In this document: positions 16,390 to 31,730 of the stretch, one piece after another
Layout: each line of letters begins with the position of its first letter
Position numbering within the stretch: the first letter of the stretch is position 1
DNA from: Sulfuricystis thermophila
GTDB taxonomy: Bacteria > Pseudomonadota > Gammaproteobacteria > Burkholderiales > Rhodocyclaceae
Assembly: GCF_004323595.1 (NCBI RefSeq)
Contig: NZ_AP019373.1
Coordinates: forward strand, 2,531,593 to 2,563,592
DNA length: 32,000 bases
Direction of reading: 5' to 3'
Position numbers and translations under genes: made by a program
The notes under the pieces: model-generated
The model's input: the letters and a program-made list of their open reading frames with translations, nothing else
Database searches by the model: none
What the model was told of the DNA's origin: nothing

Positions 16390-16420
16390 AAGCCCCATGA
16401 ATAGGGGCTTTTTTGTTTTT
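16390..16420 (+). terminator. rho-independent terminator of yicC
   Basis: AAGCCCC-atgaata-GGGGCTT stem-loop followed by TTTTGTTTTT. Confidence 0.8.
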
Positions 16421-16455: not shown

Positions 16456-16458
16456 TTT

Positions 16459-16480
16459 TGTGCACCCAAGTGTGCACCCA
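16459..16480. repeat. attL core (TGTGCACCCAAGTGTGCACCCA)
   Basis: Identical 22-mer recurs at 23728-23749. It is itself a tandem of the 10-mer TGTGCACCCA, and an inverted third copy (TGGGTGCACA) lies at 16503-16512. Confidence 0.8.
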
Positions 16481-16538
16481 GGGCATTTTTGGGGGGATTT
16501 TTTGGGTGCACATACCAATGCGCGAACAAGGAGGCGAC

Positions 16539-17822
16539 GTGGGCAATCTGACTGACATACAGATTCGGGACTGGATCAGGCGTGGTGAGCGTTTCGAGCA
16601 GCGAGGCGACGGCGACGGTCTTTATCTGCGATTCCGCAAGGCCGACGCGACGCCGAGTTGGATTTTTCGTTATCGGGTTGGCGGCAAGGCGAGAGCGATG
16701 GTCATTGGGCGCTACAAGACCCTGAGCCTGGCCGATGCGCGACGCACGGCGAAGGAACTGCGGGCGCGAGTCGCGCTTGGCTTCGATCCCGCCGGAGAAA
16801 AGCAGGAACGCAAGCGCGAGACGCTTCGCAAGATCGAGGAGGCCAAGCGGCGAATGACGGTCGGCGAGCTTGCCGACGAGTATTTCGCGGCGATGATCGC
16901 GGGCCGCTGGAAGCATCCCAATATCTGCCGGGCGCGGATCGAGCGGGACATCAAGCCCGCCATTGGGCACATTCCCATCGATGAGGTCAAGCCGCAGCAT
17001 ATCGACGATCTGCTAAAGGGAATCGTCAAGCGCGGAGCGCCGACGATGGCGAATGACACGCTGCGCTGGTGCAAGCGCATCTTCAATTACGGCATCAAGC
17101 GGCAGCTATGCCAATTCAATCCCGCTGCGCCGTTCGACGTGACCGACGCGGGCGGTAGAGAGGAGCCCCGCGACCGTTGGTTGACGCGCGAGGAATTGAC
17201 GGCGTTGTTCGCGGCGATGCGCGTGGCAAAGGGTTGGAATACGCTCAACACCTACGCGGTAAAGCTGCTGCTGATGCTTGCCTGCCGACGCGAGGAGCTT
17301 ATCGCGGCGCGTGTTGCCGAATTCGATCTTGATGGCGCGGTGTGGCACCTGCCCGGCTCGCGCACCAAAACTGGCAAGGCCATTGACATTCCGCTGCCGA
17401 GGCAAGCCGTGGTGATCCTGCGCGAGGTGATTCGATTTGGCGGGGATTCGGCTTGGCTTTTCCCTGCCCGCAAGATGCAATTGCGCATGACCCCGCATAT
17501 CGACCTGAACACGGTCGGAGCCGCTCTGAACAAGCACATTCGGCCTGCGCTGAGGAAGCGGGGCATTCCCGATTTCACTGTGCATGATTTCCGGCGCACG
17601 GCGCGAACGCACTTGGCCGCGCTTGGCGTTGAACCCTACGTGGCCGAGCGATGCCTGAACCATTCCATCAAAGGTGTCGAGGGAATTTACAACCGCCATG
17701 ACTTTTTCGATGAGCGGCGCGTAGCCCTGCAAAAATGGGCCGACCTGCTAGAGCGGCTTGAAAACGGCGGCGCGGAGGTGATCGACTTCCAGAAAATCGG
17801 CAGGCAAGGCCGGGCAGTCTGA
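16539..17822 (+). CDS. int: tyrosine recombinase, P4-type integrase (DUF4102 arm-binding N-terminus)
   Basis: N-terminus LTDIQIRDWIRRGERFEQRGDGDGLYLRFRK...WIFRYRVGGK. C-terminal catalytic HDFRRTARTHL and GIYNRHDF. GTG 16539 is preceded by AAGGAGG at 16527-16533. ATG 16518 is the alternative start. The track start 16458 lies inside att and is rejected. Confidence 0.85.
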   Translation: MGNLTDIQIRDWIRRGERFEQRGDGDGLYLRFRKADATPSWIFRYRVGGKARAMVIGRYKTLSLADARRTAKELRARVALGFDPAGEKQERKRETLRKIEEAKRRMTVGELADEYFAAMIAGRWKHPNICRARIERDIKPAIGHIPIDEVKPQHIDDLLKGIVKRGAPTMANDTLRWCKRIFNYGIKRQLCQFNPAAPFDVTDAGGREEPRDRWLTREELTALFAAMRVAKGWNTLNTYAVKLLLMLACRREELIAARVAEFDLDGAVWHLPGSRTKTGKAIDIPLPRQAVVILREVIRFGGDSAWLFPARKMQLRMTPHIDLNTVGAALNKHIRPALRKRGIPDFTVHDFRRTARTHLAALGVEPYVAERCLNHSIKGVEGIYNRHDFFDERRVALQKWADLLERLENGGAEVIDFQKIGRQGRAV

Positions 17823-18020
17823 CTTTCCGTCGGAGAATCAGGCGGTTAGACCCATTGCCTGCTCGCAGGGGCAGGCACTATATCTAGTAGGCCGCAACGT
17901 CACGCGCACTAGGCGAAACCGTAACCCATTGATTATTCAACGGGTGAAATTTTTTCCTTTGAGGTTTCGTTACGTCGCTATACGATTCGACCAATCGCAT
18001 GGCTTCGTCATGCGAGAGGT

Positions 18021-18054
18021 GCAGACCAGGGACGTGGCCGCGTCCCTGGTCTGC
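18021..18054. other. perfect 14-bp-stem GC-rich hairpin in the int-alpA spacer
   Basis: GCAGACCAGGGACG-tggccg-CGTCCCTGGTCTGC. No flanking T-run, so it could be a terminator/insulator or a protein-binding palindrome. Confidence 0.5.
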
Positions 18055-18206
18055 AAACGACGTCCGGCAGCCGGAAGCCGTTGCGTTGGATGCGTCTCCC
18101 ATACGCACGGCTAGGATAGGTCTAGCAACGCTAAGAAGTCAACACTTGTTACCACTTCCCACCACCTATCCCCTACCGGCTGCCATTGCAGAAAAGGAGC
18201 ATTGCA

Positions 18207-18479
18207 ATGGCATACATTCGCATCAATCAGATTGCTGAACGACTCGGCGGCATCCATCAATCAACCGTCTGGCGCAAGCTGAGCACCGATCCCAGAGCGC
18301 CAAAGGCAGTCAGGCTTGGATCGAGGCTAACAGTTTTCGACGAAGCCGAGGTCGAGCGTTGGATTGCTGGCCTGGTCGAGGCGGCGCGACGCAATCCCGC
18401 ACCAAGGAAGCTACCGGATACCGACGCCATTCGGCGCGGCGCGGCTACTCGCAAAGCTCTGCGGCAAGCTGCCAAGTGA
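18207..18479 (+). CDS. alpA: AlpA family phage regulatory protein / excisionase-like HTH
   Basis: MAYIRINQIAERLGGIHQSTVWRKL...PKAVRLGSRLTVFDEAEVERWI matches the AlpA/MerR-type winged HTH pattern. AAGGAG lies 9 nt upstream of ATG 18207. Confidence 0.75.
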   Translation: MAYIRINQIAERLGGIHQSTVWRKLSTDPRAPKAVRLGSRLTVFDEAEVERWIAGLVEAARRNPAPRKLPDTDAIRRGAATRKALRQAAK

Positions 18480-18491
18480 CGGAGGCGGGCC

Positions 18492-18641
18492 ATGACTACG
18501 CAAACAAAATGCCGTGGGGCGGGCACCCGCACGGCAAGAAAGAATACTGAGCGGCACGATTATCGCGCGTTTCTGACCGTCAAGCCAAGCCGCATCGAGC
18601 GCAGGCAAAAGCGCTGCTGGCGGAAAGGAGCGCGGCGATGA
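18492..18641 (+). CDS. hypothetical 49-aa highly basic protein (not in the ORF track)
   Basis: ATG 18492 is preceded by GGAGG (18481-18485). The stop overlaps the next start as ATGA. 17 of 49 residues are Arg/Lys. The Arg-richness could also be a high-GC artefact. Confidence 0.4.
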   Translation: MTTQTKCRGAGTRTARKNTERHDYRAFLTVKPSRIERRQKRCWRKGARR

Positions 18642-18901
18642 ATCCTCTTCCGAAAATGACGAGCGATTTGCATCGTGTCGGCGGCGGTTATTCCGTTCAG
18701 TTTGACACCCGATCCGGCGTGCTGCGCTGCGAGTGGACACCATCTGTTCCAAGCCCGCGCGACCTGCGGCGGAAGGTGGATATGCGCAAGTATGAGGCGG
18801 CGCGTGACGCCTTTTGCGCTGAACTGGCGCGGCGTGTCTTTCCGGGCGTTCAGTCGCCTGCTGTGGTGATTGTCGCGGAGGAGATCAAAAATGACGAATG
18901 A
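18638..18901 (+). CDS. hypothetical protein (87 aa)
   Basis: AAGGAG upstream. The 3' end overlaps the primase-helicase start by 11 nt. No recognisable motif. Confidence 0.5.
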   Translation: MNPLPKMTSDLHRVGGGYSVQFDTRSGVLRCEWTPSVPSPRDLRRKVDMRKYEAARDAFCAELARRVFPGVQSPAVVIVAEEIKNDE

Positions 18902-21632
18902 CCCCATCGAATCCTTCCGCGCTGCAATCGAAGCCGCCGGCCTGACCCCGCCGAGCGTCATCGAGCCCGATGGCCGACTGCACCGGTTCGGCACCAACGG
19001 CAAGCCCGGCGATGACGCGGGATGGTATCTCTTCCATGCCGACGGAATACCCGCCGGCGTATTCGGCGACTGGCGCACAGGCTTGCAAACGACCTGGAGG
19101 GCGACCGCCGAGCGGCGCTTGTCGCCATCGGAAAACGCTGCGCTGCGCGTCAAGCTGCGGCAAATGCGCGAGACCCGCGAGGCCGCCGAGCGTGCAGGGC
19201 AGGAAGAGGCCGCGAAACGCGCCGAGGCGATATGGGCGGCATCGGCCCCGGCGACCGAGGCGCACGGATATCTTGCGCGCAAAGGAATCGGGCCGCACGG
19301 CGCTAGGGTGATCCAGTCGGGCGATTGCGCGGGATGGCTTGCGGTTCCGATGCTCTCTATCGATGGCAAGTTGTGGAACATCGAGCGCATCGCCCCGGAA
19401 AAGCCCGCCGACGGTAGCACCGACAAGAAGGGGCTTTTTCATGGCCGGCGCACAGGATGCTTCTATCTGCTCGGCAACATCGAAGGCGCAAAGGCGCTGC
19501 TGATCTGCGAGGGGTTCGCGACTGGCGTATCGCTTCATGAGGCGACCGGCCTGCCCGTGGCCGTGGCCTTCAATGCCGGGAATCTTGAGCCTGTGGCCGC
19601 GGTGCTGCGGTGCAAGCATCCCGGCCTGCCGATGCTGATCTGCGGCGACGATGATTGGCGCACTCCCGGCAATCCGGGACGCGCCAAGGCGCAAGCTGCG
19701 GCGCGAGCCGTCGGCGCGGCGGCGGTGTTCCCGATATTCGCCGGTGAGCGCGGCGAGAAGCAGACCGATTTCAATGACCTGCACCAAGCCGAAGGGTTGG
19801 AAGCGGTGCGGCGCATCATCATGCCTGCTGTCGCGGCGCTGACCGGGCAAGGCGAGCCGCAAGCGCCGAAGGCTGCCGCCGAAGTCGACGCTGCATCGGG
19901 CTGCCCCTTCCCCGGCGAAGAATCCCGCCCATGCTTCGTCGTGCTGGATGAATGGACGGAGTGGCAGGGCCGGCGCTGGCGACCCGGCACCTATTACTGT
20001 GGCGTGGCAAGGCCGAAGAAAGATGACGCCCCGGCGACGATGTTCGAGGAATGGTTTTGCTCGCCGTTGCACGTCGAGGCCGTTACCCATGACGATAGAG
20101 AAAGCAATTTCGGTAGAAGGTTGCGGTTCAAAAACAGTCTGGGCAGGTGGCGAACGTGGGCGATGCCAATGGAACTGCTGCGCGGAAGCGGTGAGGAATT
20201 GCGCGGCGAGCTTTTGGCGATGGGTGTCGAGCTTGACCCGGCGAAGTCGCGCAGTTATCTGCCTGCCTATCTGCAATCGCGAACCCCGACCCGGCGCATG
20301 CGCTGCGCCATGCGCACGGGATGGGCAGGCAAGTCTTTCGTGCTGCCCGACGAGGTAATCGGGCCGGATGCCGCTGGCGTGATTTTCCAGAGCGGCGAGC
20401 GCGGGCACGATGAGCACACGCTAGCCGGGACGCTGGAATCCTGGCGGGCCGAAGTCTCGGCGCTGGCGCGTGGCAATCCCCTGCTGACGCTGGCGATTTC
20501 TGGCGGATTCGCCGGGCCGATGCTTGCGCGATGCAACGCCGAAGGTGGCGGACTGCACTTCGTCGGCGATTCAAGCACCGGCAAAACGACGCTGCTGCAA
20601 GCGGCTTGCTCGATTTGGGGCGGGCCGAATTACCGGCGAAGCTGGCGGGCGACCGCGAACGGTCTCGAAGGCGCGGCGAGTCTGTTCAATGACTGTCTGC
20701 TTGCGCTGGACGAAATCTCCGAGGCCGACCCGCGCGAAGTCGGGCAAATCGTTTATGCCGTCGCGAACGGTTACGGTAAGCAAAGAGCATCACGCACCGG
20801 CGCGGCGCGGAGCGTGACGCGCTGGCGCTGCTTTCTGCTGTCGAGCGGTGAGCGCAGCATCGAGACTACGATGAACGAAGGCGGGCATCGGGCCAAGGCC
20901 GGTCAAAGCGTGCGACTGTTGAATGTTCCCGTCGCGCGGGAATTTGGCGCATGGGACGACCTGCACGGCGCGGCATCCCCGGCGGCATTCGCCGATGCCA
21001 TCAAACGCGCGGCGGCGGCGCATCATGGCCGCGCCGGTCGAGCCTTTCTGGAAAGGCTGACCCATGACGAGCGCGACTTTTGCGCCCTGCTCGAAGAGGT
21101 CAAGGGGCTTCCCATGTTCGCGGCGGAAGGCGGCGAAGGTCAGGAAAAGCGGGCCGCTGCGCGGTTCGCGCTGATCGGTCTCGCCGGTGAGCTTGCGACC
21201 GAGTATGGCCTGACTGGATGGGCCGAAGGCGAGGCCATCGATGCGGCGGCGCTGGCTTTTGGCTTGTGGCGATCCATGCGCGGCAGGGGCAACGACGAGC
21301 GGCGACAGATCGCCGAGCAGGTTTCCGCATTCCTTGAGCGGCACGGCGACGGGAGATTCTCGGATGCCGACGCGCCTACCGATATTGCAATTCGGGATCG
21401 AGCAGGATGGTGGCGCGACGAGCAGGGGAGTCGCATCTATCTGTTCACGGCGGAAGCGATGCGCGAAGCGCTGCGCGGTTTCGACCTCCGACGCGCATTG
21501 GACGTGCTGCAAGAGCTTGGTGCATTGCCTGCGCCAGACGGCGACGGAAAGACCGCGCATCGGTTCAGGATCGGCGGGCGGCGCATGCGGCTTTACGCCA
21601 TCAATCCCGACAAGCTGGAAGTCGCGCAATGA
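18891..21632 (+). CDS. bifunctional primase-helicase (Toprim domain + DUF927/SF3-like Walker NTPase)
   Basis: ATG 18891 is preceded by GGAGGAG. Toprim segment ALLICEGFATGVSLHEATGLPVAVAFNAGNL...LICGDDD...DFND. Walker A is GDSSTGKTT and Walker B is LLALDEISEA. This architecture is typical of island/satellite replicases. Confidence 0.8.
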   Translation: MTNDPIESFRAAIEAAGLTPPSVIEPDGRLHRFGTNGKPGDDAGWYLFHADGIPAGVFGDWRTGLQTTWRATAERRLSPSENAALRVKLRQMRETREAAERAGQEEAAKRAEAIWAASAPATEAHGYLARKGIGPHGARVIQSGDCAGWLAVPMLSIDGKLWNIERIAPEKPADGSTDKKGLFHGRRTGCFYLLGNIEGAKALLICEGFATGVSLHEATGLPVAVAFNAGNLEPVAAVLRCKHPGLPMLICGDDDWRTPGNPGRAKAQAAARAVGAAAVFPIFAGERGEKQTDFNDLHQAEGLEAVRRIIMPAVAALTGQGEPQAPKAAAEVDAASGCPFPGEESRPCFVVLDEWTEWQGRRWRPGTYYCGVARPKKDDAPATMFEEWFCSPLHVEAVTHDDRESNFGRRLRFKNSLGRWRTWAMPMELLRGSGEELRGELLAMGVELDPAKSRSYLPAYLQSRTPTRRMRCAMRTGWAGKSFVLPDEVIGPDAAGVIFQSGERGHDEHTLAGTLESWRAEVSALARGNPLLTLAISGGFAGPMLARCNAEGGGLHFVGDSSTGKTTLLQAACSIWGGPNYRRSWRATANGLEGAASLFNDCLLALDEISEADPREVGQIVYAVANGYGKQRASRTGAARSVTRWRCFLLSSGERSIETTMNEGGHRAKAGQSVRLLNVPVAREFGAWDDLHGAASPAAFADAIKRAAAAHHGRAGRAFLERLTHDERDFCALLEEVKGLPMFAAEGGEGQEKRAAARFALIGLAGELATEYGLTGWAEGEAIDAAALAFGLWRSMRGRGNDERRQIAEQVSAFLERHGDGRFSDADAPTDIAIRDRAGWWRDEQGSRIYLFTAEAMREALRGFDLRRALDVLQELGALPAPDGDGKTAHRFRIGGRRMRLYAINPDKLEVAQ

Positions 21633-21652
21633 TCCGCCCATCTTCATTTTTG

Positions 21653-21901
21653 CGTGTCCCACGTGTCCCACGTGTCCCATTGCCCGGAAACCCGCATCAA
21701 ATGGGCATTTCGGGAAATCGAGGCCGGGACACGTGGCCCTGTCCCAATGTGTCCCACGTGTCCCGGCTGCTGGTTGGAGCGTATCAGGTGGGACACATGG
21801 GACACGTCGACATTTTCGAGGTGTCCCGCCCCCGTCTGCCCGGAAACCCGCATCAAATGGGCATCTTCGCGAGGTGGGACACATGGGACACGTGGGACAC
21901 C
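21653..21901. repeat. iteron array, putative island origin of replication
   Basis: 12 perfect copies of GTGTCCC/GGGACAC plus one TGTCCCA variant. Forward triplet with 9-bp period at 21653-21679 and reverse triplet at 21875-21901. 28-bp perfect direct repeat TGCCCGGAAACCCGCATCAAATGGGCAT at 21681-21708 and 21837-21864. 12-bp inverted repeat CCGGGACACGTG/CACGTGTCCCGG at 21724-21735 and 21755-21766. Confidence 0.7.
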
Positions 21902-21965
21902 GAAAAAAATCAAAGTCGAGAGTTTTGGGTGAGTTGCAACCTGATCAGACTGGCGGAGGTGCCGA

Positions 21966-22280
21966 GTGTCGATTGAATCGTTGCTGGCGACTTTGAAATC
22001 ACGGAACCCCGGCGCTGGCGAGACGGGCACGGGGGCGCTGGACAAGCTGCGCGAGGCGGCGCAGGGCATCCGTGCGCCCCTATCCGGGCCGCATCCCGAC
22101 GGCGCTATGTCCCTGCACGTCGACCCCAGGCAACAGCGGCTCATTGATCTGGCCGAAGGGCGCGGCATCGAGGTGCTCCGGACGCTGGGCCGATTGGTGG
22201 TGATTACCGGCGGCGCTGCCGATCTGGTGGCGCTGGTTGAGGAGGCGCAATCTGATGACGAGGTGAGGCATGGCGCTTGA
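21966..22280 (+). CDS. hypothetical protein (104 aa)
   Basis: GTG start preceded by GGAGG (21955-21959). First gene of a four-gene overlapping set. No recognisable domain. Confidence 0.5.
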   Translation: MSIESLLATLKSRNPGAGETGTGALDKLREAAQGIRAPLSGPHPDGAMSLHVDPRQQRLIDLAEGRGIEVLRTLGRLVVITGGAADLVALVEEAQSDDEVRHGA

Positions 22281-22530
22281 AAAGCTCACCCAACCCGTTG
22301 AAGGCGAACTCATTCCCGCGAGCCGGACGGGATACTCGCGCCGACCGAGCCTTGGCACGGCGCGCGGCGTTCGGCGCGAACTGGCGTCGGTTTACCTCGA
22401 ACTTAGACGCGGTGAAATCGACGAGCGCCACGCGACGAGCGCCGCTTACTTGCTGCGCTGCGTGCTCGAATCAATCCGGCTTGACGAGATTGAGCAACGT
22501 TTGACTGCACTAGAGGAGACCCGCCGATGA
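22270..22530 (+). CDS. hypothetical protein (86 aa) with C-terminal coiled-coil-like segment
   Basis: ATG overlaps the upstream gene by 11 nt. The sequence RRELASVYLELRRGEIDERHATSAAYLLRCVLESIRLDEIEQRLTALEE resembles small phage-associated helical proteins, which is an impression only. Confidence 0.5.
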   Translation: MALEKLTQPVEGELIPASRTGYSRRPSLGTARGVRRELASVYLELRRGEIDERHATSAAYLLRCVLESIRLDEIEQRLTALEETRR

Positions 22531-22748
22531 ACGTAGCTGCTTTGCTGAGGCGCATTGCGAGACTTGAAGCCAAAGCCGATGACGAATGGCTGATCTACAC
22601 CCACGAGCGCGAGGAGCCCGACGGTTCCCTGACGTTGTTGAACGACCGCACATTCGACGGCGAGCCGATTGAGGTCGCGCGCATCCCGGCGAACGAGGTC
22701 GAGCGGCACCGGCGCACCGTGATCCGCATCGAGCGGAGTCACCCGTAA
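22527..22748 (+). CDS. hypothetical protein (73 aa)
   Basis: ATGA overlap with the upstream stop. AGAGGAG lies 8 nt upstream. No recognisable domain. Confidence 0.5.
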   Translation: MNVAALLRRIARLEAKADDEWLIYTHEREEPDGSLTLLNDRTFDGEPIEVARIPANEVERHRRTVIRIERSHP

Positions 22749-23131
22749 TGGCCTGTTCGCAGTTGCTGACCGAATACCTTGGCGAAGCGGCTGCAGCCAG
22801 GCTGTGCGCGGCACTCGGCGGCTGCCAGATCAAAATCCCCAAGCGGCGCGATGGCGTATGGTGGGCGCGGCTTGTCGAGGCAATCGGCGAGCGCGATGCC
22901 GAGGAGCTTTGCCGCATCTTCGGCGGCGAGAGCATCTACATCCCGCGCAATGCCGCATCGGGCCGCGAGGAGTTGCGCCGCCTGGTGCTGCGCCGCCTGG
23001 CCGCCGGTGAGACTTTCGCCGAGATTGCCCGCAGTCTGGAATTCCGCGTGCGCTACTCGGAGCGCGGGTTGAGGAAGCTGGTGGCGGGACCGGGCAACGG
23101 TGCGTTACTGAGTAACGGCGCGAGGGATTGA
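22748..23131 (+). CDS. Mor-like transcriptional activator (Mu middle operon regulator family-like)
   Basis: TAATG overlap with the upstream gene. Contains FGGESIYIPRN (the Mor signature is GGxxxYIPR) preceded by a degenerate copy GGCQIKIPKR. This is followed by an HTH-like AAGETFAEIARSLEFRVRYSERGLRKLV. 127 aa versus 129 aa for Mu Mor. Confidence 0.55.
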   Translation: MACSQLLTEYLGEAAAARLCAALGGCQIKIPKRRDGVWWARLVEAIGERDAEELCRIFGGESIYIPRNAASGREELRRLVLRRLAAGETFAEIARSLEFRVRYSERGLRKLVAGPGNGALLSNGARD

Positions 23132-23135
23132 CCGC
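23117..23135. repeat. 19-bp direct repeat copy 1 (GGCGCGAGGGATTGACCGC), spans the Mor-like gene stop
   Basis: Identical 19-mer at 23599-23617. Both copies are preceded by TACTGAG a few nt upstream. Confidence 0.7.
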
Positions 23136-23355
23136 CGGGCGGATCCGGCGCATGATCTGCGCACGGTGCTAGTCACACCAAATCGAAAGCGGCAGGCCGC
23201 CCCGATAGCGTGGCTTTGTTGCGTCTGTGGTTTGCCCTTTCAATGGGCGGATGCGCCATATCGTGAGGTATGGCGGCACGGCTTTCGACGTGTGACTAAC
23301 ATCCGCCCACCCCCGCTCGTAAACGGGCCAATAGACCTACGAAAGGAGCAATCTC

Positions 23356-23532
23356 ATGAGCACCAAGCAATCCTCCCATTACGCCATCGGCCAAGCGCTA
23401 GTCGAGCCCTACTCAATCATGCTGGAAATCCGGCCAATCGGCCTGACGCTGGAAGAATTCCGGGCCGACCTGCCGAAGCTGTTAGCCCGTCTTGAAGAGC
23501 TAATCGCAGCATCGAATGACCGGCGCACCTGA
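23356..23532 (+). CDS. hypothetical 58-aa protein (below the ORF-track size cut-off)
   Basis: ATG 23356 is preceded by AAGGAG (23343-23348). About 71% G/C at third codon positions by hand count. Sequence MSTKQSSHYAIGQALVEPYSIMLEIRPIGLTLEEFRADLPKLLARLEELIAASNDRRT. Confidence 0.55.
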   Translation: MSTKQSSHYAIGQALVEPYSIMLEIRPIGLTLEEFRADLPKLLARLEELIAASNDRRT

Positions 23533-23598
23533 GCCCCCGGCGCCGGTAGGACGGCACGAACCGCGACTGGCTCACATACTGAGAAATAGTGTGAAACT

Positions 23599-23617
23599 GG
23601 CGCGAGGGATTGACCGC
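23599..23617. repeat. 19-bp direct repeat copy 2
   Basis: Identical to 23117-23135 and immediately followed by the island terminator. Confidence 0.7.
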
Positions 23618-23624
23618 GACCCCG

Positions 23625-23649
23625 AACCCGGCGCTTGCCGGGTTTTTTT
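23625..23649 (+). terminator. rho-independent terminator at the island right end
   Basis: AACCCGGC-gctt-GCCGGGTT stem followed by TTTTTTT. Confidence 0.75.
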
Positions 23650-23727
23650 CTGGCGAGGCTGCCGCTTGGCGGCGCTGGGGATTGGTGGCATCATGCAGAC
23701 GGAGCTACCCGCCAAGCCCTGATTTTG

Positions 23728-23749
23728 TGTGCACCCAAGTGTGCACCCA
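23728..23749. repeat. attR core (TGTGCACCCAAGTGTGCACCCA)
   Basis: Perfect copy of 16459-16480. Confidence 0.8.
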
Positions 23750-23851: not shown

Positions 23852-24505
23852 ATGACTTTGACGACCACCCCGCCCCTCGCCAGTGACGCCAATGCCGGTA
23901 CGCTGTTCGTCGTCTCCGCGCCTTCCGGCGCCGGCAAGACGACCCTCGTGCGGATGCTGATGGAGCGCGACCCGGCGATCCGCCATTCGGTGTCCTACAC
24001 GACCCGTCCGCCCCGTCCGGGCGAGCGTGATGGCCACGATTACCATTTCGTCGATATCCAGACCTTCCTCGCGATGCGCGAGCGCGGCGATTTCCTCGAA
24101 TGGGCCGAAGTGCATGGCAATTTCTACGGCACCTCGAAAAGCTGGCTGCTCGGCGAGCTGGCCGCCGGTCGGGACACGCTGCTCGAAATCGACTGGCAGG
24201 GCGCCCAGCAGGTGCGCGCGCTGATCCCCGAGGCCGTCGGCATCTTCATCCTGCCGCCCTCGATCGCCGAACTGGAACGGCGGCTGCGCAACCGCGGCCA
24301 GGACAGCATCGAGGTGATCCAGCGCCGCGTCGCCGCCGCGCTGGGTGAGATGCGCCACGTCGACGAGTTCGATTTCGTTATAATCAACAATGACTTGCAG
24401 GAAGCCCTGGCGGATCTGGTCGCGGCGGTGCGAGCTTCGCGCCTGCGTTTCCGGCAGCAGCGCCTCCGCCATCCTGACGTGTTCCGTTTTCTTTCATTGC
24501 TTTGA
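23852..24505 (+). CDS. gmk: guanylate kinase
   Basis: [17 protein letters not shown]-loop, [10 protein letters not shown] and [12 protein letters not shown]. Trimmed from ORF 23729 (which begins inside attR) to ATG 23852. Confidence 0.9.
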
Positions 24506-27854: not shown

Positions 27855-28148
27855 ATGAACATTTCCAGCGTCATCGTCATTCCGCATCCCGAGCAGGTCG
27901 CGGCAGTGCGTGCCCGCCTGCAAACCCTTCCCGGTGTCGAGCTCGCCGCCGTCTCTCCCGAAGGCAAGATGATCGTCACGATCGAAACGGCGAGCGACCG
28001 GGATACCGTCGAACGCTTTGAGCAGATCAATCTTCTGGACGGCGTGATGTCGGCCTCCATGGTCTATCACCAGAAAGAGGATGATCCGGAAGCACCCATT
28101 TCTTCTGTGGAGGCGTCGCCCGCCGGCGATGCCACGGCACTGGCTTGA
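27855..28148 (+). CDS. napD: NapD chaperone for periplasmic nitrate reductase
   Basis: [44 protein letters not shown]...[10 protein letters not shown] follows the NapD pattern. Directly upstream of napA. Confidence 0.85.
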
Positions 28149-28165
28149 AAACAAGGAGATTGGCA

Positions 28166-30715
28166 ATGGAACTGACACGGCGTGAATTCATCAAGGCAAA
28201 TGCGATCGCCGCCGCGGCCGGCGTGGCGGGCATGTCGATTCCCGGGGCCCAGGCGCTCGCGCAGGTCAAGGCTGATGACGGCATCCGCTGGGACAAGGGC
28301 GCCTGCCGCTACTGCGGCACCGGTTGCAGCGTGCTGGTCGGCGTCAAGGATGGCCGCATCGTCGCGACACAAGGTGACCCCGACGCGCCGGTCAACAAGG
28401 GATTGAACTGCGTCAAGGGCTATTTCCTCGCCAAGATCCAGTATGGCCAGGACCGGCTGACCAAGCCGCTTTTGCGCATGAAGGACGGCAAGTACGACAA
28501 GAACGGCGAGTTCCAGCCGATCTCCTGGGATCAGGCCTTCGACATCATGGCCGAGAAGGTCAAGGCGACCTTGAAGAACCCGGAACAAGGGCCGCAGGGC
28601 GTGGCGATGTTCGGCTCCGGCCAATGGACGATCTGGGAAGGTTACGCCGCCGTCAAATTGATGAAGGCGGGTTTCCGCTCCAACAGCATCGACCCGAACG
28701 CGCGCCATTGCATGGCCTCGGCGGTGGCCGGCTTCATGCGCACCTTCGGCATCGACGAGCCGATGGGCTGCTATGACGACATGGAGCATGCCGACGCCTT
28801 CGTGCTGTGGGGCTCGAACATGGCCGAGATGCACCCGATCCTGTGGACGCGCATCACCAACCGTCGGCTCACCGCCGACCATGTGCGCATCCATGTGCTG
28901 TCCACCTTCTCGCACCGTTCCTGCGAACTCGCCGACAACGAGATGATCTTCAAGCCGCAGTCGGATCTGGCGATCCTCAACTACATCTGCAACTACATCA
29001 TCCAGAACGGCGCGGTCAACAAGGACTTCGTCGCCAAGCACGTCGGCTTCTTCAAGGGTGTCACCGATATCGGTTATGGCCTGCGCCCCAACCACCCGCT
29101 CGAGCAGGCGGCCGGCAACAACGGCTACCCTGGCCCGGACGGCAAGCCGAAGGGCGATCCGAACAAGCACACACCGATCACGTTCGAAGAATTTGCCCAG
29201 TTCGTCTCCGAATACACGCTCGACAAGGCGCACGAGCTTTCCGGCGTGCCCAAGGACAAGCTCGAAAAGCTCGCCAAGACCTATGCCGATCCGAAGACCA
29301 AGGTCTGCTCCTACTGGACGATGGGCTTCAACCAGCACACGCGCGGCACCTGGGTCAACAACATGATCTACAACGTGCATCTCTTGGTCGGCAAGATCTC
29401 CGAACCCGGCAACGGCCCGTTCTCGCTGACCGGTCAACCTTCGGCCTGCGGCACCGCGCGCGAGGTCGGCACGTTCACGCATCGCCTGCCGGCCGACATG
29501 GTGGTGATGAATCCGAAGCACCGCGAGACCGCGGAAAAGATCTGGAAACTGCCCGCCGGCACGATCAACCCGGTGCCCGGTTATCACGCGGTGCTGCAAT
29601 CGCGCATGGCCAAGGACGGCAAGATCGGCTTCTTGTGGACATCCACCACCAACAACATGCAGGCGGGCCCGAATGTCAATGGCGAGGTCTATCCGGGATG
29701 GCGCAATCCGAAGTGCTTCACGGTCGTCTCCGATGCGTATCCGACCGTCTCGGCGATGTCGGCAGATCTGATCCTGCCCGCCGCGATGTGGATGGAAAAG
29801 GAGGGCGCCTATGGCAACGCCGAGCGGCGCACCCAGTTCTGGCGCCAGCAGGTCAAGGCGCCGGGTGAGGCCAAATCCGATCTGTGGCAATACCTGGAGT
29901 TCTCGAAGCGTTTCAAGGTCGAGGATGTCTGGCCGGCGGAGCTCGTCGCCAAGATGCCCGAATACAAAGGCAAGACGCTCTACGAGATCCTCTATCTCAA
30001 CGGTCATGTCAACAAGTTCCCGAAGGAAGAGGCGGCAAAGGTGAATGCCCACGCCTGGACCGGCTACACCAACGACGAGACCGAGCACTTCGGCTTCTAC
30101 GTGCAAAAAGGGCTGTTCGAGGAATATGCCGAGTTCGGCCGTGGTCATGCTCACGACCTCGCGCTGTTCGACACCTATCACAAGGTGCGGGGCCTGCGCT
30201 GGCCGGTGGTGGATGGCAAAGAGACGCTGTGGCGCTTCCGCGAAGGCTACGACCCCTATGTCAAGAAAGGCGAAGGGGTGCGCTTCTATGGCTATCCCGA
30301 TGGCAAGGCGAAGATCTTCGCGCTGCCTTATCAGCCGGCTGCCGAAATGCCGGACAACGAATACGACCTGTGGCTGTGCACCGGCCGCGTGCTTGAACAC
30401 TGGCATACCGGCTCGATGACGCGGCGCGTGCCCGAGCTCTACAAGGCCTTCCCGGATGCGGTGGTGTTCATGCACCCGAAGGATGCCGAAAAGCGTGGCC
30501 TCAAGCGTCACGACGTCGTCAAGGTCATCACGCGGCGCGGCGAGATCCAGCTGCGCGTCGAGACCAAGGGGCGCAACAAGCCGCCGGAGGGATTGATCTT
30601 CGTCCCGTTCTTCGACGAGCACCGCCTGGTCAACAAGCTCACCCTGGACGCCACCTGTCCGATCTCGAAAGAGACCGACTTCAAGAAGTGCGCCGCCAAG
30701 GTGATCAAGGTCTGA
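28166..30715 (+). CDS. napA: periplasmic nitrate reductase catalytic subunit NapA
   Basis: Tat signal [22 protein letters not shown]. 4Fe-4S motif CRYCGTGCS. Molybdopterin oxidoreductase sequence throughout. ATG 28166 is preceded by AAGGAG. Confidence 0.95.
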
Positions 30716-30791
30716 CCCGATCGATGGCTCGGTAACGTAACGACATGGAAACGGGAAGCAGGACAGGGGGCAGGCTTCCCGCCCCACGAAC

Positions 30792-31730
30792 ATGGCTCAA
30801 GATACGAAATCCAAAGGCTCGGCCCGTCGCCAGTTCCTTGCCGACACCGCCCGCATGGTCTGCAGCGTCGGCCTTTTGGGACTGGGCGTCGGACTCTACG
30901 CGCGGCATGCGACCGCGCTGCCCCCTGCTGCCATCCGTCCCCCCGGCGCTTTGCCGGAAACGGCATTCTCTGCCGCCTGCATCCGCTGCGGCATGTGCGT
31001 GCGCGACTGCCCGTATGACATCCTGCATCTCGCCAAACCGGAAGAGCCCATGGCGACGGGCACGCCCTATTTCGTCGCGCGCCAGGCGCCATGCGAGATG
31101 TGCGAGGACATCCCATGCGTAAAAGCCTGCCCGACTGGGGCGCTCGATCACCGCTTGACCGACATCACCAAGGCCCGCATGGGGCTCGCGGTGCTGATCG
31201 ACCACGAGACCTGCCTGAATTTCTTGGGCTTGCGCTGCGATATCTGCTATCGCATCTGCCCGGTGATCGACAAGGCAATCACGCTCGAACCGATGGCGAA
31301 TACACGCACCGGCAAGCATGCGATGTTCATCCCGACCGTGCATTCCGAAGCCTGTACCGGCTGCGGCAAATGCGAGAAAGCCTGTCCGACGGAAATCGCC
31401 GCGATCAAGGTGCTGCCGATCTACGTCGCCAAGGGCCAGCTCTCTGCACATTACCGGCTCGGCTGGGTCGAGAAGGAGAAGGCTGGCGGCAGTCTCGTTG
31501 CACCGGATGTCGAGCACCAATACAACCTGCCGGAGGGCATGCGCTATGACTACGGCGGCAAGGGTTTGCTCAACGAGCCGCCGGCGCCAGGTGCGGGCGC
31601 CGCAACGCCCGGCGCTCAGGGAAGTGCCGCCCCGCCAGCGCCGACTTTTCGAGGTGAGGCGGCGCCCGGCGGAACGCCTTCATTTCCGTCAGCGCCGACT
31701 TTCAAAGCCCTGCAGGGAGACAAGCTATGA
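30792..31730 (+). CDS. napG: ferredoxin-type protein NapG (4x 4Fe-4S) with extended Pro/Ala/Gly-rich C-terminal tail
   Basis: Tat-like [11 protein letters not shown]. Four Cys clusters ([50 protein letters not shown]). 312 aa versus about 230 aa for E. coli NapG (from memory). Confidence 0.85.

Follow-up and report, generated by a model that had tools for sequence, protein, structure and literature searches.

A dense repeat array follows a replicase gene in Sulfuricystis thermophila

The 32 000 nt of Sulfuricystis thermophila DNA analysed here (the 32-kb window) carry a 7.3-kb island, at 16459-23749, that is inserted between yicC and gmk/spoT. All genes of the island lie on the plus strand: int, alpA, a gene for a 913-amino-acid replicase with Toprim_3 and DUF927 domains (18891-21632) and, beyond a repeat array at 21654-21900, six small open reading frames (ORFs), one of them Mor-like. 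The array is the subject of this report. From comparison with homologous loci, we consider it likely that the array is the cluster of cognate sites for the replicase and most likely the replication origin of this integrative element. An original prediction, made from the letters of the window, had proposed that the array is the island origin and the replicase binding site; sequence comparison supports this proposal, and it is from the comparison that we infer binding and replication.

The original prediction had counted 12 perfect GTGTCCC/GGGACAC heptamers and one variant in about 250 bp, and these counts hold. Exact heptamers occur 13 times in the window, 12 of them within the 247 bp of 21654-21900 and one at 24171, whereas dinucleotide-preserving shuffles of the whole window contain 3.06 on average and at most 7. 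As had been described, the first heptamer starts 21 nt after the replicase stop codon (TGA, 21630-21632), and heptamers at 9-bp spacing form the outer triplets at 21654/21663/21672 (plus) and 21876/21885/21894 (minus). The natural unit of the array is 8-9 bp, TGGGACAC(r). With up to one mismatch, the window holds 13 units, all inside the array: nine TGGGACAC, three CGGGACAC and one TGGGACAG, the last being the variant of the earlier count. No second cluster of units was found in the island or the window, even with one mismatch allowed.

The arrangement of the units has two-fold (dyad) symmetry, with the axis at ~21777, rather than the mirror symmetry originally described. From left to right, the array consists of an outer triplet of 9-bp units, TGGGACAC on the minus strand (21654-21680); an inner single unit, CGGGACAC, directed at the centre (21725-21732, plus); the variant TGGGACAG, which has no symmetric partner (21739-21746, minus); an inner doublet of TGGGACAC and CGGGACAC (21749-21765, minus); the dyad centre (21766-21788); a second inner doublet of two TGGGACAC units (21789-21805, plus); a single CGGGACAC that is the counterpart of the first (21821-21828, minus); and an outer triplet of three TGGGACAC units (21875-21900, plus). 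Apart from the variant, either side thus runs from an outer triplet through an inward-pointing single to a doublet next to the axis. Seven units lie to the left of the axis and six to the right, and the outer triplets and inner doublets of the two sides are oppositely oriented. A central inverted repeat is present as predicted; its arms (21723-21736/21754-21767) are 14 nt long rather than 12. The array is predicted to form a strong hairpin as single-stranded DNA (z -7.4), a consequence of the dyad symmetry that we do not count as independent evidence. An Rfam scan of the window gave no match, and the array is therefore not a known RNA.

Each half of the array also carries one copy of a 28-bp perfect direct repeat (21681-21708 and 21837-21864, both plus), confirmed as originally reported. 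The left copy (TGCCCGGAAACCCGCATCAAATGGGCAT) is oriented like the right copy, whose orientation is that of a spacer motif found throughout the family (gcgAAACCCgcgccAaTAnTGGcTTGcAC), and it matches that motif. The two copies had been described as adjoining the triplets, which is true of the left copy, beginning 2 nt past its triplet, but not of the right, which stops 11 nt short. Because the 28-bp copies are direct repeats and lie 9 bp off symmetric positions, they break the symmetry of the array. The G+C content (GC) of the centre (21760-21799, in 30-nt windows) is 0.57-0.67, compared with ~0.63 locally, and the centre is thus not AT-rich. The lowest values of the region (0.40-0.47, again in 30-nt windows) fall in the right flank, at 21890-21950. 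A candidate unwinding flank at 21902-21950 comprises this least GC-rich stretch and the A-run noted originally, which is real but consists of seven A residues at 21903-21909, since 21902 is a G. The sequence GAAAA..CAAAG that follows the right triplet is found also in relatives.

Homologous loci carry arrays at the same position

A profile scan restricted to one genome per species identified 80 loci with replicase homologues of 50-68% identity, mostly in Betaproteobacteria, to which three closer metagenomic relatives (69-71% identity) were added by exact look-up. A metagenome scan with the single replicase protein yielded one truncated locus only. In nearly all of the ~80 loci a repeated unit is present 20-260 nt past the replicase stop codon and is rare elsewhere in the locus. 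The units share a 9-bp frame, T-G-N-N-A-C-N-N-n, within which the sequence varies: relatives carry TGATACCC, TGATACGG, TGTTACCC, TGTTACGC, TGTTACAC, TGGAACGG, TGTAACGT, TGCAACGG, TGTATCCC and others, and TGGGACAC is confined to the window, being absent from all other loci, including the closest relatives.

The layout of the array takes two forms. In the joined form, seen in at least 11 of the 61 loci that could be typed, the window among them, both halves lie 3′ of the replicase gene. One such relative, L031, has the order triplet, spacer motif, single, doublet, doublet, single, spacer motif, triplet and then an A-run, so that its unit order is that of the window. In the split form (35 of 61) one half of five units lies past the stop codon and an inverted copy lies 1.5-2.1 kb upstream, within the replicase gene itself, where the variable linker that connects the Toprim and DUF927 domains is encoded, ~1.8 kb from the other half. 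Half-arrays in the linker are found, for example, at 6939-7020 in L006, 6996-7077 in L019, 6105-6177 in L041, 3471-3552 in L066 and 7086-7167 in L018, and in 30 further loci. Most accessory ORFs of the window have no homologue among the fetched loci and are therefore uninformative on the array. Whole IMG/VR contigs that carry both replicase and array can be as short as 6374 bp (L087), 5832 bp (L088) and 5677 bp (L089), and no terminal repeats were found in these three; such tiny contigs may reflect packaging in virus-like particles or an artefact of classification.

The 28-bp repeat of the window is the local version of a family-wide element. Among 48 loci aligned by anchoring on the last tandem units, a conserved module consists of an inverted unit, the spacer motif gcgAAACCCgcgccAaTAnTGGcTTGcACcc and the tandem units, and the window 28-mer (GGAAACCCGCATCAAATGGGCAT) corresponds to this motif. 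Its AAACCC and GG..TG.AC parts are constant whatever the unit type. The original prediction had taken the 28-bp repeat to suggest a second binding factor. The constancy of the motif while the iterons vary fits a conserved partner of this kind, without being proof of one, and on the sequence pattern the partner may be another replicase surface or a host protein. In the joined relatives L031, L029 and L077 the left and right spacer motifs are mutually inverted. Those of the window are direct and identical at 28 of 28 positions, which suggests that the right copy was copied recently.

The replicase resembles SaPI Rep in its helicase and C-terminal domain

The replicase is identical to a Sulfuricystis thermophila DUF927 protein and comprises a Toprim primase (residues ~125-314), a variable linker, a DUF927 helicase and a C-terminal domain. 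Over residues 125-314 it shows homology to the P4 alpha primase domain (33% identity, E 3e-17), including the EG[FY]AT motif. Outside the primase, P4 alpha has D5_N, DUF5906 and Pox_D5 domains where the replicase has DUF927. By sequence, residues 463-676 match the structure of the Rep protein of the Staphylococcus aureus pathogenicity island (SaPI) SaPIbov1 (8tch, E 1.4e-15), and residues 510-660 match the Cch helicase of the staphylococcal cassette chromosome SCCmec (5dgk, E 6.7e-13).

To examine the C-terminal domain, we built an AlphaFold model of residues 680-913 on an alignment of 63 sequences (mean predicted local distance difference test score, pLDDT, 83.7). The model contains a helical bundle, a β-hairpin, two helices and a terminal β-hairpin at residues 890-904, the strands of which occupy model positions 211-215 and 218-225 (residues 890-894 and 897-904). 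Foldseek aligned the model with the C-terminal part of 8tch with a probability of 1.0 over 199 columns and with 5dgk at 0.98-0.99. It also returned TcpK (5vfx), a winged-helix protein solved on oriT DNA, with a target-normalised TM score of 0.65. The analogy with SaPI origins drawn in the original prediction therefore rests on homology, since SaPI Rep is a relative of the replicase in both helicase and C-terminal domain. The accompanying analogy with P4 is weaker: the crr element does lie directly 3′ of alpha, but only the Toprim primase domain is common to the two proteins.

The repeat unit covaries with the terminal hairpin of the replicase

A comparison of iterons with the replicase C-terminus across homologous islands had been proposed as a check on the original prediction, and its outcome was positive. 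We scanned 600 C-terminal alignment columns in 61 loci. Replicase identity between loci with the same unit core exceeds that between loci with different cores by 0.01-0.05 in the helicase core and by 0.12-0.15 over the last ~50 residues, and the best predictors of unit type among the 600 columns are residues 885-898. Residue 887 explains 0.94 of the entropy at unit position 7, followed by residue 885, and residue 898 explains 0.76 of the entropy at unit positions 3-5, followed by residues 891 and 892. Glu887 is paired with G at position 7, and Lys, Arg, Ala or Val887 with C or A, in 60 of the 61 loci; no column outside the C-terminal tail predicts position 7 in more than 46 of 61. On a neighbour-joining tree of residues 384-860 (the helicase core) the character at position 7 changes ~13-14 times. 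The covarying residues are all on the modelled terminal β-hairpin, or 'wing'. In the window, the codons for residues 885-904 (DGKTAHRFRIGGRRMRLYAI) are at 21543-21602 (plus) and include the covarying K887, R891, F892 and R898 within the sequence G-K887-T-A-H-R-F-R-I-G-G-R-R898-M-R-L-Y.

Residue 898 corresponds to the first part of the unit as follows: Gly with TGATAC, Leu with TGTTAC, Lys with TGGAAC, Val or Thr with TGTAAC, Pro with TG[C/A/T]A.C and Arg, as in the window, with TGGGAC. The two correspondences occur in many combinations. Lys887 with Gly898 accompanies TGATAC-C (14 loci), and Glu887 with Gly898 accompanies TGATAC-G (5); Lys887 with Leu898 goes with TGTTAC-C/A (6), and Glu887 with Leu898 with TGTTAC-G (4); and Lys898 goes with TGGAAC-G when residue 887 is Glu (6) and with TGGAAC-C when it is Lys (1). 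Because the two rules combine freely in this way, linkage of neighbouring DNA alone is disfavoured as an explanation. Three IMG/VR loci outside the scan also conform. One of them, with a replicase of only 38% identity, has ten TGGAACAC units and Lys at both 887 and 898.

These data raise the possibility, which we rate as somewhat short of probable, of a modular predictive code in which residues 887 and 898 specify the two parts of the unit, together with two interconvertible forms of the origin, joined and split. Were the code to act causally, sequence alone would reveal the specificity of an origin, and point mutations could re-engineer it; for example, a K887E substitution is predicted to shift preference from TGGGACAC towards TGGGACGN. 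The code would also account for the coexistence of many mutually orthogonal replicons in Betaproteobacteria, and the split form would imply that the origin can be assembled by DNA looping.

Coding context of the array

The replicase stop codon is overlapped by an ATG (ATGG[C/G]GCTTGA) in ~65 of 78 relatives, and this ATG opens the +1 frame. The frame stays open for 300-840 nt through the array, whereas both others meet a stop codon within some tens of nucleotides. Its early codons (M-A-L-E/D-S-L-L-x-S-L-K) differ synonymously among relatives, which indicates that the ORF is translated; as the ORF spans the array, the proposed origin of these relatives would be embedded in coding DNA. The product of the coupled ORF has 255-275 amino acids (for example at 8831-9658 in L083 and 3369-4136 in L084) and matches no Pfam family. 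L083 and L084 share a conserved C-terminal part of this product (…EEAAIRAWLALIEETDPATIAEVIG…), which the window lacks.

The array of the window is intergenic, unlike those of most relatives. The window replicase ends in ...PDKLEVAQ*, and the proteins of the relatives in ...GGDHGA*. Downstream of the array lies orf104 (21955-22280, plus), with a GGAGG ribosome-binding site at 21955-21959 and a GTG start codon at 21966, which marks the 3′ limit of the intergenic candidate origin. The product of orf104 begins with the peptide SIESLLATLKSR, which relatives have ahead of the array as the N-terminus of their read-through ORF. In addition, the HGA*/MALE junction CATGGCGCTTGA, which in relatives joins the replicase to the read-through ORF, is located in the window at 22269-22280, between orf104 (ending in ...RHGA*) and the next ORF. 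On sequence grounds, the positions of orf104 and of this junction point to a rearrangement in the window. All three forward frames are open across the window array for ~300-360 nt (21633-21996). One ORF there, at 21629-21976, overlaps the replicase stop codon through ATGA and has no Pfam match; we treat it as non-coding, although this is unproven.

Boundaries and other genes of the island

The island is bounded by an exact 22-bp direct repeat, TGTGCACCCAAGTGTGCACCCA. The left copy, a putative attL, is at 16459-16480 between yicC and int, and the right copy, a putative attR, is at 23728-23749 just upstream of gmk, which encodes guanylate kinase. The repeat is itself a tandem of ~10 bp (GTGCACCCAA twice). 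The distance from the array is 5.2 kb to the putative attL and 1.8 kb to the putative attR. A scan for tRNA genes found none in the window, and the island is therefore not tRNA-associated. The int ORF (16458-17822, plus) encodes a tyrosine integrase with Arm-DNA-bind_3, Phage_int_M and Phage_integrase domains, and its true start is probably downstream of 16458. The alpA gene (18186-18479, plus) encodes an AlpA-family excisionase or regulator (PF05930, E 3.2e-8; phrog_66).

Among the small ORFs, 22748-23131 encodes a homologue of the Mor/C family of late transcriptional activators (PF08765, phrog_836), the only Pfam or PHROGs hit downstream of the array, although no structural gene is recognized in the island. 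One may speculate that this protein, like P4 delta, acts on the late genes of a helper phage. Searches of the island ORFs against Pfam and PHROGs revealed no capsid, terS, packaging or interference gene, an absence that is unproven because several small ORFs are unassigned, and none matched sid, psu, delta or epsilon. By eye, terminator-like GC-rich hairpins followed by T-runs are present after yicC (AAAAGCCCCATGAATAGGGGCTTTTTT, ~16390-16420) and near the right end of the island (CCCGGCGCTTGCCGGGTTTTTTT, ~23630-23655). Outside the island, Pfam gave no match (E ≤ 0.01) for a 908-amino-acid ORF at 28067-30793 (minus), which is overlapped by a long ORF of the opposite strand (28145-30715).

The array as a probable origin of replication

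The position of the array, its conserved layout, the tracking of its units with the replicase wing and the homology of the replicase to SaPI Rep together argue that the array is the cognate site cluster of this protein. Because the island contains no other cluster of units, it is also the most likely origin. Replication might then proceed as follows. After excision of the island by Int and AlpA, the replicase would read the 8-9-bp TGGGACAC units through the wing (K887 to R898) of its winged-helix-like C-terminal domain and, like SaPI Rep, would act as a self-loading hexameric helicase. The two opposed halves of the array, each with six to seven units (outer triplet, inverted single, inner doublet), could load two helicase rings in opposite directions. 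The DNA would open inside or beside the array, the sole AT-richer stretch being the right flank at 21902-21950, and the N-terminal Toprim domain would prime synthesis by a host polymerase. The six C-terminal domains of a hexamer resemble in number the six units (plus one degenerate) of each array half, which we regard as a numerical observation only.

Several points weigh against assigning this role to the array. All steps of this scheme, from binding and ring loading to melting and replication, are predictions for the island, as binding and replication are for every member of its subfamily. The layout in the window is atypical, with an intergenic array and direct 28-mers, and a recent rearrangement could have impaired it. 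The wing codons are just 30-90 bp from the array, so that joint inheritance of the two as a module could explain part of the covariation. No array was found 3′ of the gene in relatives of ~39% identity, phage vB_Pae_U10 and plasmid pTAO100, and an array in this position is therefore a trait of the subfamily, for whose role these relatives lend no independent support. In the 28-bp motif and its homologues, inspection by eye gave no convincing match to the IHF (integration host factor; WATCAANNNNTTR) or DnaA-box (TTATNCACA) consensus, for which reason we claim no host factor. Finally, origins of SaPIs and other phage-inducible chromosomal islands (PICIs) have an AT-rich region between the iteron sets, whereas the island array does not.

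Some features of these distant relatives are of separate interest. Toprim and DUF927 are encoded by separate genes in both vB_Pae_U10 (L093, 10 183 bp) and pTAO100 (L092, 6436 bp). The record of vB_Pae_U10, deposited as a Pseudomonas phage, lists int, two excisionase-like genes and a GpN capsid gene and is satellite-like. As pTAO100 also has RepM, it is no proof that the replicase alone can run a plasmid.

Other functions for the array must be weighed against that of an origin. The replicase might bind the array at a place where replication does not start, the array serving as a crr-like enhancer or as a copy-control or autoregulatory site that acts by handcuffing or as a roadblock to transcription into the downstream operon. 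The P4 precedent is pertinent here, since the cluster directly 3′ of alpha is crr and ori is 4.5 kb away; split clusters ~1.8 kb apart in 35 of 61 relatives likewise suggest looping between sites, and the array separates the replicase gene from the next operon, in a region where a scan of 21300-22400 for sigma-70 promoters and terminators gave no match and leaves a promoter role neither supported nor excluded. We nevertheless consider such a function unlikely, because a separate origin would lack replicase sites, given the single cluster in the island, and because the helicase and C-terminal domain are like those of SaPI Rep, for which, as in PICIs, the 3′ array is the origin (PMC9371898; PMC6092414). 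That another regulator, such as AlpA, the Mor-like protein or a small ORF product, uses the repeats as operators for the downstream genes is very unlikely. The array is upstream of orf104 and the Mor-like gene, and dyad repeats are typical of operators, but 12-13 sites in 250 bp is far above what operators usually have, the units follow residues 887-898 of the replicase in sequence, array-bearing loci lack conserved downstream genes, and AlpA was found by tblastn in only nine loci.

The reading frames that run through the array in ~65 of 78 relatives, and the three that are open in the window, would also be expected if the array were a remnant of repetitive coding sequence with no function as DNA in the window. 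We regard this as highly improbable. The second half-array of split loci belongs to another gene, where it falls in the replicase linker; as units are found in either orientation, they encode different peptides; every locus keeps its units identical, and these covary with the wing of the replicase; and the window retains nine perfect 8-mers outside any recognizable gene. An arrangement of integrase arm-type sites, or a packaging (pac/cos) signal, is scarcely credible, even though the integrase has an arm-binding domain and the arm repeats of P4 are near crr. Arm sites flank the att core, whereas the array is kilobases from both putative att sites and stays at the replicase stop codon in loci with differing integrases; and in the covariation scan, which covered the replicase, the units track that protein. 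We rejected the arm-site and pac readings on this combination of position and covariation with the replicase.

A small mobile element of S. thermophila is now annotated with its putative boundaries and its probable origin, and the design of SaPI/PICI origins, an initiator gene followed by its own iterons, would extend to betaproteobacteria, in a large, GC-rich family whose replicase fuses Toprim to DUF927. The ~80 natural variants provide a correspondence between residues and bases for the wing of an initiator, through which origin specificity and incompatibility become testable.

Relationship to known replication systems

The closest counterparts of the array are the origins of SaPIs and PICIs. 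The C-terminal winged helix of SaPI Rep proteins reads iterons of 5-6 nt, of which 6-12 are located directly downstream of rep in opposed sets (PMC9371898). In Gram-negative PICIs the order is int, alpA, pri and an ori 3′ of the initiator gene, and this ori has been tested in EcCICFT073 of Escherichia coli (PMC6092414; PMC10111431). The island shares the position of the iterons directly 3′ of the initiator gene, as do the ~80 homologous loci, and the two opposed sets, here with 12-13 units of 8-9 bp. SaPIbov1 Rep is matched by both the ATPase and the C-terminal domain of the replicase, for which iteron binding is predicted, and SaPI5 PriRep5 has, like the replicase, a primase fused to Rep. The arrangement of int, alpA, pri and ori on one strand between flanking att repeats is also that of Gram-negative PICIs. 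The island array differs from SaPI/PICI origins in the conserved non-iteron spacer motif of each half, and its relatives differ in that most have the array in coding DNA, often as split halves 1.8 kb apart.

We know of no helper phage for the island. PICIs are 10-20 kb and carry packaging, capsid-remodelling or interference genes; the island has 7.3 kb and no gene recognized as such, and the label of PICI or satellite is therefore not justified. The satellites termed PICMIs (phage-inducible chromosomal minimalist islands) are also small and minimalist, but use another primase family (PMC10803314). Assignment to the P4-like satellites is likewise not indicated: the Toprim primase of P4 alpha is homologous to that of the replicase, its helicase and DNA-binding parts are unrelated, and of the alpha-type domains (Zn ribbon, Toprim, D5_N, SF3 helicase, Pox_D5) Toprim is the only one in common. 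The crr of P4 resembles the island array in having 8-bp repeats in both orientations directly 3′ of alpha, beside attP and int. P4 has two clusters, ori being 4.5 kb from crr, where the window has one, and it is the split relatives that recall this two-cluster layout.

The Cch protein of SCCmec belongs to the same DUF927 MCM-like helicase family (5dgk), and both proteins come from integrative elements. SCCmec uses serine recombinases and has a separate primase, and we know of no iteron origin defined for Cch. In phage lambda, ori is inside gene O. The linker half-arrays of the relatives resemble it in being iterons within the coding DNA of an initiator gene, whereas the O protein is unrelated to the replicase and the window array is intergenic. 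Iteron plasmid origins of the RepA, pi or TrfA type have direct iterons of 17-22 bp, a winged-helix Rep without a helicase, DnaA boxes and an AT-rich element. The island departs from that plan, with 8-9-bp units in both orientations, a helicase-primase as initiator and no DnaA box by eye. In kind, the proposed origin is of the known SaPI/PICI type and would not surprise a specialist; its added interest is modest and lies in the correspondence between residues and bases and in the split, joined and coding-embedded variants of its relatives.

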